The translations under genes were made by a program, and so were the position numbers. Source: Myxococcales bacterium (GTDB lineage Bacteria; Myxococcota_A; UBA9042; JABWCM01; BTVJ01). Taken from it: a stretch of DNA of 64,000 nucleotides. Below, in pieces: positions 53,091 to 54,695 of the stretch; the first letter of the stretch is position 1, and the number at the start of each line of letters is the position of its first letter. The DNA lies in assembly GCA_045863395.1 (NCBI GenBank), contig BTVJ01000002.1, positions 1 through 64,000 on the forward strand. The letters run 5' to 3'. The notes beneath the pieces are model-generated. The model saw nothing but the letters and a program-made list of their open reading frames with translations, was not told where the DNA came from and searched no databases.

Positions 53091-54695
53091 ATGCTCACTC
53101 TCAACATCTGGGAAGGCGACGACAAGGTGTCGCTCGTCACCAATGGCCGGGCGGCCTACGGCCATGCTGCGCTGGTCCTCGAGGCCCAGGGCGATTCGGT
53201 ACCCCGCTCCCTCTACATGAGCTGGTGGCCCGGGGACGGCGAGGAGGAGGAGATCAAGGTCCTCGGAAAGACCAAGGGCAAGACGGTCAACCGCCAGGAG
53301 GAGCGCACCTTCCGAGAGGACCTCTGGGCGGAGAACAACAACCGGTATCTCACGGACCTCGTGTTCACCGCGCCCACGTCCTCGGAGCGACAGTTCTGGT
53401 CCACGGCCAACGACGGGACGCCCGAAGAGCACGTGCGCTTCCTGTTCCGCAACAATGGCCAGGCGCTGCCGGAGCACGAGCCGTGGGATGACAAGCCCGT
53501 GCTGAGCGGCACGCTGGAGCGGTCTCCGGGCCACTGGGTGATCGACGTGCCCCACGAGAACCGCCTGTACCTGTGCTGGAACGGCAAGCAGGGGATCAAG
53601 GTGCAGCTCCACCAGGGCCACCGGTTCCTGTTCGAGGAGACCATCCAGGGCATCGGGACGGAGCTCGACGACCTCATCGGGCCCGAGGACGTGACCAGGG
53701 TCCAGACGGAGGACGTCCCGGACTCCATTCGAGGGCCGCTGGAGGCACATCACTTCCCGGTGCACGAGGACGCGGAGATCCGGCGCGTGTCGGAGCGCCA
53801 GTGGGCGATCACGTCGCCGAAGCACGACTACTACCTCGTCGCGACGGACATGGGCCGCACGAAGGTCCGGTTCTACCGCTGGACCCGCCAGGGCCTGGCG
53901 CCGAGCCGGAACATCAGGATCCCCACCCTGACGGCCGACGGGCGGGGCCTGGACGACCGCGCCATGGCCCGGTGGTGGGCCGCCTTCAACGCCGACACCA
54001 ACCCCAAGTGGAGCACGTTCGACCGCAACTGCTCCGTGATCGTCGCGACGGCGCTCCGCGTCGGGGGGGCCACTCGCTTCGCGAAGCCCCACGTCACCGC
54101 CTCGTGGTTGTGCTGGACCCCGAGCGACATCGCCACCTACGGGGAGGCGCTGGCGCTCGCCATCGGGAAGAAGGAGAAGAAGCGCCAGAAGAAGGAGCAG
54201 CGAACACAGGGGACCGGCGGACCGCGCGTGAACCCGCTGCTCCAAGGCGGCCGTGGCACAGGGTCGACCCAGCGGCCCGGGTGGATGACCGGGCGCGTCC
54301 CCCAGGTCACGGAGGGGCAGCAGGGCGGGTTCGTCATCGGCAGCACGCGGACGCGCCAGGAGCCGCCCGACCAGCCGCCGCAGCAGCCGGTGCCGCAGCA
54401 GGAAGAACCCCAGCCCGCCCCGGTGTGGACGAAGCAGCAGTTCCGCGACCAGACGAAGTCCAACACCTTCCTCTCCGGCAGGAACTCCGATCTGACGCTG
54501 ATCGACACCGCACTCCAGGCCTACCACCTGACCTACCACGGTCAGACGCAGGCGCGGATCAACAAGCTCAACGCGGTCCTGGACGCCATCGCGAAGCTGA
54601 CCCTGAAGCACCCGGACTCGAAGAAGCTGGGCGCCGTCTACGAGCTCGCCGAGCAGGTCGTGGCGCAGCGCCTGGCGCTCGTCGCGCTGCTGTAG
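53091..54695 (+). CDS. Stand-alone RID/IcsB-like permuted papain-fold (lysine fatty-acyltransferase-like) effector with C-terminal 4-helix membrane-localisation domain
   Basis: GHAAL, YMSWWP, TFREDL, GLDDRAM, NCSVIVATALRVGG and WTPSD match my recollection of the MARTX RID core. C-terminal ALQAYH...LKHPDSKK...LAEQV resembles an MLD. GGAGG RBS precedes ATG 53091 (alternative ATG 53079). Confidence 0.7.
   Translation: MLTLNIWEGDDKVSLVTNGRAAYGHAALVLEAQGDSVPRSLYMSWWPGDGEEEEIKVLGKTKGKTVNRQEERTFREDLWAENNNRYLTDLVFTAPTSSERQFWSTANDGTPEEHVRFLFRNNGQALPEHEPWDDKPVLSGTLERSPGHWVIDVPHENRLYLCWNGKQGIKVQLHQGHRFLFEETIQGIGTELDDLIGPEDVTRVQTEDVPDSIRGPLEAHHFPVHEDAEIRRVSERQWAITSPKHDYYLVATDMGRTKVRFYRWTRQGLAPSRNIRIPTLTADGRGLDDRAMARWWAAFNADTNPKWSTFDRNCSVIVATALRVGGATRFAKPHVTASWLCWTPSDIATYGEALALAIGKKEKKRQKKEQRTQGTGGPRVNPLLQGGRGTGSTQRPGWMTGRVPQVTEGQQGGFVIGSTRTRQEPPDQPPQQPVPQQEEPQPAPVWTKQQFRDQTKSNTFLSGRNSDLTLIDTALQAYHLTYHGQTQARINKLNAVLDAIAKLTLKHPDSKKLGAVYELAEQVVAQRLALVALL

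Follow-up and report, generated by a model that had tools for sequence, protein, structure and literature searches.

A RID/IcsB-type putative lysine fatty-acyltransferase with a C-terminal membrane-localization domain, encoded by an orphan gene of a Myxococcota-like bacterium

Lysine fatty-acyltransferases (k-FATs) with a permuted papain core and a His-Asp-Cys triad include IcsB of Shigella and BopA of Burkholderia, which are linked to type III secretion systems (T3SSs), and RID, the Rho-inactivation domain found in Vibrio MARTX toxins, which is released from a holotoxin exported by a type I secretion system (T1SS) and whose catalytic residues, according to the accessible part of the source, are H2598 and C2838 (PMC6315884). 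In a 2026 study of IcsB-like acyltransferases, as far as its accessible text goes, two proteins, H10 and H11, were placed in an 'environmental clade'; H10 was lethal to yeast and showed protein acylation that depended on its His and Cys, the C-terminal domains were called poorly conserved, the hosts were considered 'unlikely to colonize eukaryotes', and the question of why T3SS-less bacteria carry an active k-FAT such as H10 was left open (PMC13059803). The same portion of text makes no mention of a membrane-localization domain (MLD), membrane localization, or a type VI secretion system (T6SS). Here we describe a related gene in a 64,000-nucleotide stretch (hereafter the window) of a Myxococcales bacterium (assembly GCA_045863395.1, contig BTVJ01000002.1, positions 1 to 64,000). 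It encodes a 534-aa protein with an N-terminal RID/IcsB-type core and a C-terminal MLD, which we read as a T6SS-delivered, membrane-targeted lysine fatty-acyltransferase directed against microbial eukaryotes; with activity, target, and delivery all predicted, this reading as a whole lies only a little on the likely side.

A first-pass annotation of the window had ended the open reading frame (ORF) at 54167, but the protein is longer than this and is not single-domain. The frame is open from the ATG at 53091 to a stop codon at 54693-54695, which was borne out by a contig of an independent run (X7; covering 52390-55305, 16 substitutions and no gaps). The truncation meant that the linker and the MLD (aa 441-534) had been missed; an insert of ~180 aa within the core (aa 86-267) had also gone unmentioned. 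The motifs named in that annotation all lie in frame, with the His, Asp, and Cys codons where it had placed them (Table 1). A sequence search of PDB returned RID of V. vulnificus (5XN7) as the sole match (E 5e-6), and a profile of 56 relatives again ranked 5XN7 at the top (E 6e-30 overall), the match falling into two domains, i.e. the catalytic core (E 2.5e-22) and the helical bundle of the N-lobe (E 8e-5). The next six rows of the profile search were all toxin MLD regions (TcdA, TpeL, and RTX MLD; E 0.0015-0.013), followed by unrelated Mediator helices (E 0.016-0.025). By our own count, His25, Asp77, and Cys314 align to residues 313, 385, and 553 of the 5XN7 chain, the crystal having Ala at 553, and the His-Cys spacing of 240 in 5XN7 is that of H2598/C2838 in RID. 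The Asp of RID presumably lies 72 residues after its His. The Cys is invariant in two alignments of relatives (A1, 56 rows; A3, 71 rows), and His, Asp, and Cys are each conserved in at least 90% of A3. In a fold search with a model of aa 1-359 (predicted local distance difference test score, pLDDT, 83), RID was the top match (Z 11.3, root-mean-square deviation (rmsd) 3.7 Å, 132 aligned residues, 28% identity), and both halves of the core aligned jointly to RID 2579-2880. The precomputed Pfam assignment is PF27349 (IcsB_M). Sequence and model together support a RID/IcsB-type permuted papain core with a putative His-Asp-Cys triad, as the first-pass annotation had proposed. NCBIfam families matched neither the query nor H10 or H11, Atlas feature matches (0.87) serve as leads only, and sub-threshold Pfam matches to DUF4100 and NCTSP_N were disregarded.

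In the fold search (VIA) with the full model, the five best rows, over aa 441-534, were all toxin MLDs, headed by TcdA (Z 15.1, rmsd 1.6 Å), TcdB (14.5), and RID (14.3) and followed by rows at 14.1 and 13.8 (rmsd 1.6-1.8 Å, 86-91 aa), while unrelated bundles did not exceed Z 10.9. The make-up of basic and hydrophobic loops has been tied to membrane binding of toxin MLDs (PMC3417404, accessible part), and the query carries basic and hydrophobic residues in loop 1 and basic residues in loop 3. Among 56 aligned family MLDs, loop 1 contains a basic residue in 56 and a large hydrophobic residue in 50, loop 3 contains a basic residue in 54, and R464 is kept in all 56; the Pfam MLD family PF11647 matches 12 of these 56 members at E<=0.1 (best 3.6e-5). 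By modelled fold and key residues, the C-terminus is a four-helix-bundle membrane-localization (4HBM) domain of the TcdA/PMT/RID type, predicted to bind lipids. The 4HBM domains of TcdA/TcdB/TcsL/TpeL, PMT, and RRSP resemble it in fold (rmsd 1.6-2.5 Å) and in their basic/hydrophobic loops, but in the matched structures they precede the catalytic domain of a large toxin, whereas here the domain ends a 534-aa protein.

Vibrio RID shares with the query the core fold, the motifs, the aligned His, Asp, and Cys, and a four-helix MLD, but in RID the MLD precedes the core and a different insert separates Asp and Cys. The query, a stand-alone ORF between recC and a TPR/PMT_2 gene with its MLD at the C-terminus and no holotoxin, is thus not a MARTX RID proper. 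IcsB and BopA share family PF27349 and the order of the triad with the query; IcsB has an N-terminal T3SS/chaperone domain, whereas the query core starts at residue 2. Over about 130 columns, core identity of the query is 33% with H11, 31% with a Vibrio RID, 26% each with H10 and a BopA-family protein, and 22% with IcsB, and a plasmid tblastn search with the query did not match icsB. The closest counterparts in layout are H10 (WP_008870026.1; a 375-aa protein of genome G092 was matched to this row by eye) and H11 (WP_054022033.1, a Piscinibacter protein), which are likewise stand-alone, with an N-terminal His-Asp-Cys core, no T3SS signal, and a C-terminal MLD; in H10 the MLD was detected by a hidden Markov model (HMM) at E 1.8e-24, and hhalign gave a probability of 100 over both domains. 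The query differs from both in its doubled insert, long linker, and orphan gene. Since one active and one inactive protein of the same layout had already been assayed in yeast (PMC13059803, accessible text), the earlier description of the protein as undescribed was too strong: the enzyme class is known, and what is new for the query is the layout reversed relative to RID, the doubled insert, and the host lineage. No description of a C-terminal MLD or of a T6SS link for the family was found in the literature within reach, which was covered mostly at the level of titles, with most subscription papers lying beyond it.

A search of representative proteins yielded 180 matches at E<=0.001. The best 150 of the 180 comprised 56 proteins with the core followed by an MLD (one being the query's own record), 51 bare cores, 21 N-terminally extended proteins, 17 fragments, four with another C-terminus, and one unassigned, and none had the MLD before the core; the share of core+MLD proteins is biased upward by the MLD of the query itself. 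Five of 26 extended proteins scanned match RHS families, and three match lectin-like families. Mean core identity to the query is 32% for other core+MLD proteins, 34% for bare cores, and 35% for extended cores. RID is the best match of the catalytic part by sequence and fold, and in core identity bare and Rhs-tip relatives (34-35%) stand roughly as near to the query as RID does (31%). A FastTree tree was built from 115 cores with IcsB as the root. In it the core+MLD proteins appear as a grade and the query lies between IcsB/BopA/H10 and RID; a clade of 78 (support 0.89) unites the query's group with RID and almost all of the bare and extended cores, and the MLD label changes four times, compared with 37 in shuffles. 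The tree has an arbitrary root and contains one RID only, so it gives no direction of descent. Of at least 120 rows from a GTDB DNA pattern scan, DNA was examined for 80 loci: 18 contained a real core, seven of them core+MLD (Piscinibacter, Acidobacteriaceae, two Desulfohalobiaceae, Isosphaeraceae, Gemmatimonadaceae, and Planctomycetota; the Acidobacteriaceae ORF has the Cys half and MLD only), and 61 had no match. One locus (L079; a 69-aa stretch, E 0.001) was dropped, and a search for related loci with alignment A2 found nothing.

Immunity-like neighbours in the family differ with layout. Judged by eye, no immunity-like ORF comes after any of the 13 core+MLD genes considered: seven have no ORF in range (one with only 270 bp of contig left), and six have low-complexity or housekeeping ORFs. 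Behind each of the three Rhs-tip genes, again judged by eye, lies an ORF of 138-175 aa whose start resembles that of a lipoprotein. In the window, recC diverges on one side and the convergent TPR/PMT_2 gene ends 6 bp away directly 3' of the gene, which leaves no room for an immunity gene, in agreement with the first-pass annotation. This contrast, together with the MLD, favours a eukaryotic target and strengthens the idea put forward there; we regard such a target as quite probable. The three Rhs proteins ending in a RID-like core (L047, L076, and L082), each with its lipoprotein-like small ORF, are candidate antibacterial toxin-immunity pairs.

The protein could instead act on lipid rather than on protein lysine, as a phospholipase A or lipid acyltransferase of the Tox-Act1/TseH/PLAAT kind whose core the MLD brings to anionic membranes. 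In the fold search, TseH (Z 9.9), YiiX (8.3), and PLAAT4 (5.8) come after RID, bare and Rhs-tip relatives share 34-35% core identity with the query, and the lipoprotein-like neighbours of the three Rhs-tip genes are as for periplasm-acting toxins. Phospholipase activity is reported for Tox-Act1 and TseH (PMC12994826, accessible part). These two T6SS effectors (permuted NlpC/P60) share the superfamily fold and the T6SS link with the query, but they are antibacterial and lipid-targeting, are ~10% identical to it, and have no MLD, and Tox-Act1 has an immunity protein. Fold-alignment identity is 28% to RID versus 8-14% to TseH, YiiX, and PLAAT4, H10 with its same layout acylates proteins, and RID nests in one clade with the bare cores. 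We consider a lipid substrate unlikely and lysine fatty-acylation, as in RID, IcsB, and H10, likely.

The genome encodes delivery machines away from the gene, as had been anticipated. A T6SS on contig C11 comprises TssB, TssC, TssK, TssE, TssF, DotU, and DUF4280, and the best PDB match of its TssC is Francisella IglB (427 vs 383 bits). Of 24 proteins tested from G092, the genome of H10, 16 have their best match on C11 (TssC 77%, TssB 71%). H10 itself is encoded about 11 kb downstream of an IglE-containing T6SS, in the company of a Scabin-like ORF and of a further ORF with an MLD, and the DotU of its host is the closest to that of Francisella (PMC3326028, accessible part). TssC scored above the cut-off in all nine genomes tested that carry the gene (carriers), compared with 2/40, 31/148, 28/50, and 2/50 genomes of four carrier lineages with carriers left out (4-56%). 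Multiplying these baselines by hand gives about 2e-4, an overstated figure, since kinship, genome size, and incompleteness are uncorrected and three lineages have no baseline. Gene copies lie in or beside T6SS genes in three of the nine carriers (G041, G044, and G092): in G041, one copy closes the same-strand run tssB-tssC-hcp-tssE-F-G-clpV-vgrG-DUF4280-Ntox11, and one of four copies in G044 adjoins tssA while another is 4 kb from tssB. We consider delivery by the T6SS fairly likely.

The same anti-eukaryote acyltransferase might also leave the cell through the extracellular contractile injection system (eCIS) on contig C80, which carries Pvc16, two sheaths, two tubes, a CIS_tube-LysM protein, and a hub, or by some other route, and an orphan gene without a known secretion signal would suit either. 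Pvc16 was found in only four of the nine carriers, compared with TssC in all nine, and T6SS genes were the only secretion genes seen next to family members. The search of the genome (97% complete) for secretion loci, which the first-pass annotation had suggested, produced a T6SS and an eCIS but no injectisome; an injectisome T3SS was rejected because the one FHIPEP gene belongs to a flagellar cluster that also contains FlhF, FlhB, and MotAB. Delivery by the eCIS or by another route appears quite unlikely.

Under the favoured reading, i.e. an injected, membrane-targeted k-FAT, the protein would be an orphan effector aimed at eukaryotic cells, which in sludge would probably be fungi or protists that graze on bacteria. 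Lacking a signal peptide, it would be produced in the cytoplasm and most likely be injected by the Francisella-like T6SS on C11. Inside the target, the MLD would bind anionic lipids at the cytosolic face of the membrane and, with the flexible linker, would place the His25-Asp77-Cys314 core near membrane-bound small GTPases and SNAREs. By homology with RID, IcsB, and H10, the core would then use host acyl-CoA to load lysines with a long acyl chain, which may block actin and vesicle traffic; the doubled insert might, speculatively, serve in substrate choice or in sensing a cofactor of the host.

Several observations weigh against this reading. The fold is shared with the phospholipases Tox-Act1 and TseH, and Foldseek returned no match at E<=0.001 for either the full model or that of aa 1-359. 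H11 was neither toxic to yeast nor active, and four of 11 homologues were inactive, according to the accessible text (PMC13059803); this inactive protein has the same layout as the query and is nearer to it in core identity (33%) than H10 (26%). The tree is based on 132 columns, and its support values come from FastTree alone. In the MLD, position 512 is Lys in the query versus Arg in 51 of 56 members, and PF11647 stays under its curated cut-off (14.4 bits vs 35, E 0.042). As for delivery, the gene is on contig C2, away from the T6SS, has no vgrG/hcp/PAAR neighbour, and encodes no T6SS marker domain in Pfam; no T6SS gene occurs in the stretches read for six of the nine carriers, this genome included; the genome has an eCIS as well; and carriers tend to have large genomes, are metagenome-assembled genomes, and include the three lineages without a baseline. 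Finally, contigs from RNA runs span the gene and its flanks alike, with no signal specific to the gene.

An anti-eukaryote cysteine enzyme of another chemistry (protease or deacylase), or one that is narrow or cofactor-gated like the inactive H11, with its specificity set by the doubled insert, would accommodate the inactivity of H11 in yeast, the restriction of the insert to its own subclade, and the opinion, in the accessible text, that the fold is compatible with protease activity (PMC13059803). Active k-FATs flank the query on both sides in the tree and the RID-type motifs around His and Cys are kept, and we judge this explanation improbable. A housekeeping or self-directed enzyme that acylates the cell's own proteins or lipoproteins (Lnb-like) is very improbable: the gene lies among housekeeping genes with host-like codon use and Lnb_N appears among Atlas clusters, but the family is absent from 40 class relatives of the host and the full protein from 400 phylum genomes (four MLD-only matches), and the protein has a toxin MLD, no signal peptide, and relatives in effector arrays.

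More broadly, and doubtfully as yet, core+MLD proteins might form a widespread, unrecognised third class of k-FAT effectors, delivered by T6SSs (including Francisella-like T6SSs outside Francisella) against protists by free-living Myxococcota, Planctomycetota, Desulfovibrionales, Gemmatimonadota, and others. They would be a grade linking T3SS-delivered IcsB/BopA to MARTX RID, the toxins of pathogens having arisen from anti-amoeba weapons by domain shuffling, and Rhs-tip versions would have shed the MLD, acquired immunity genes, and become antibacterial. As to why T3SS-less bacteria carry an active k-FAT, the linkage to T6SSs and the toxin-type MLD at the C-terminus offer a testable answer, namely that these are injected anti-eukaryote effectors. 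If that answer holds, the T6SS would join T3SS and MARTX as a third way of delivering this chemistry, a Francisella-like T6SS of free-living bacteria would have a first candidate cargo, and a 4HBM domain would work at the C-terminus of a small effector.

The insert that splits the core shows, in the model, a strand-helix-helix-four-strand pattern twice and is probably a tandem duplication. Sequence evidence for the duplication is weak: comparison of the halves by HMM gave at best 7.0/7.2 bits, compared with 5.2 for the best of 1400 shuffles, and an hhalign probability of only 0.3. The insert is confined to a subclade of about eight proteins, two of them from Planctomycetota. Its fold matches reached only Z<5, with no usable Atlas match, and rows for profilin, KA1, and START folds (Z about 4) were disregarded.

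The gene is single-copy, and a genome search revealed no paralogue and no second MLD, consistent with its earlier description as an orphan stand-alone gene. The ATG at 53091 is favoured over that at 53079 as the start because GGAGG lies 5 nt upstream and close relatives begin at the same residue. The promoter-like match sits in the short gap common to the gene and the divergent recC. As had been remarked earlier, the protein has no hydrophobic N-terminus or signal peptide and is rich in Lys, Asn, Gln, and Trp (18% of residues vs 4-9% in five neighbours). The GC content at third codon positions (GC3) is 0.94, which is neighbour-like, so the lower GC content reflects amino-acid use rather than recent foreign origin, and a recent horizontal arrival is unsupported. 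The assignment of the host as Myxococcota-like agrees with 88 matches to TIGR02232 (myxo_disulf_rpt), compared with none in 14 controls. Sludge, wastewater, bioreactor, aquatic, and soil runs account for 20 of 24 among the matches listed for the stretch (10 studies), two rows possibly being the source of the stretch itself; rows with small word shares were left aside. The features are listed in Table 1.

Table 1. Features of the gene and its flanks (positions in the window; pTM, predicted template-modelling score)
Feature	Position	Strand	Basis
Whole gene, 534 aa: insert-split catalytic core, linker, C-terminal MLD	53091..54695	+	Frame; model pLDDT 80.5, pTM 0.73
His/Asp half of permuted papain core, aa 1-85; His25 at 53163, Asp77 at 53319	53091..53345	+	Alignments, profile
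Insert between Asp and Cys, two ~90-aa alpha/beta modules (aa 86-177, 178-267)	53346..53891	+	Model
Cys half of core, aa 268-374; Cys314 at 54030	53892..54212	+	aa 285-366 align to RID 524-605
G/Q/P-rich flexible linker, aa 375-440	54213..54410	+	pLDDT <50 at 393-425 and 435-438
Four-helix-bundle MLD, aa 441-534; loop 1 F460, L461, R464; loop 3 S510, K511, K512	54411..54692	+	Fold and profile
Sigma-70-like promoter match TTGTCG-16-TAGAAT	53033..53060	+	1 found vs shuffle mean 0.1; consensus match only
Putative ribosome-binding site GGAGG, 5 nt before ATG 53091	53081..53085	+	Sequence
recC, recB, recD, and DNA methylase; flank, outside the element, divergent	41560..52980	-	Pfam
TPR/PMT_2 (TMTC-like) gene; flank, outside the element, convergent, stop 6 bp away	54702..56297	-	Pfam

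In the upstream flank (41560-52980), recC-recB-recD is followed by a methylase of the Eco57I type. Another strain shows many substitutions within recC (51186-52174) and few in the effector gene.

The Francisella-like T6SS on C11 (G000:C11:89782-147060) is split over about 57 kb and is orthologous gene by gene to the cluster of G092; neither Pfam nor NCBIfam picks up its Hcp-like and VgrG-like genes. Beside it, an 876-aa ORF (G000:C11:86917-89547, minus strand; L003:3921-6548) matches SidM_N (E 9.6e-12) and, weakly, PDB entries of Legionella DrrA (E 0.001), and is a candidate second anti-eukaryote effector. A 755-aa ORF nearby (G000:C11:83597-85864, plus strand; L003:598-2862) matches Peptidase_M91 (E 2.9e-12), with a sub-threshold XopG/HopH match; both ORFs fit a host armed against protists. 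Within the eCIS cluster (G000:C80; L004:3321-16140, minus strand) lies a 1573-aa ORF with no Pfam family.

Downstream of the G092 T6SS lies an effector array (L136:5635-15619 and L135:14991-17039) that contains H10, the Scabin-like ORF, a second copy broken by an IS21 element, and two ORFs with the same MLD on other cores. Neighbours of two distant core+MLD genes (L062:5774-6991 and L074:5932-7152) have in common 32 N-terminal residues (41% identity, E 4e-6), which may act as a targeting signal in both; only these residues are shared, the L074 neighbour matches Peptidase_C58, and the family has no match in this genome. Cores behind lectin-like or laminin-G-like domains occur in L020, L025, L027, and L063 (locus labels assigned by eye) and in P0097, P0131, and P0143, and are possibly receptor-binding secreted toxins. 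Two of the four phylum genomes with MLD-only matches have TssC, which is uninformative. The same MLD begins unrelated proteins in other genomes of the Myxococcota phylum (L149-L153) and in G044 (L142:8393-9856), which suggests that it is a mobile module present on further unknown effectors.

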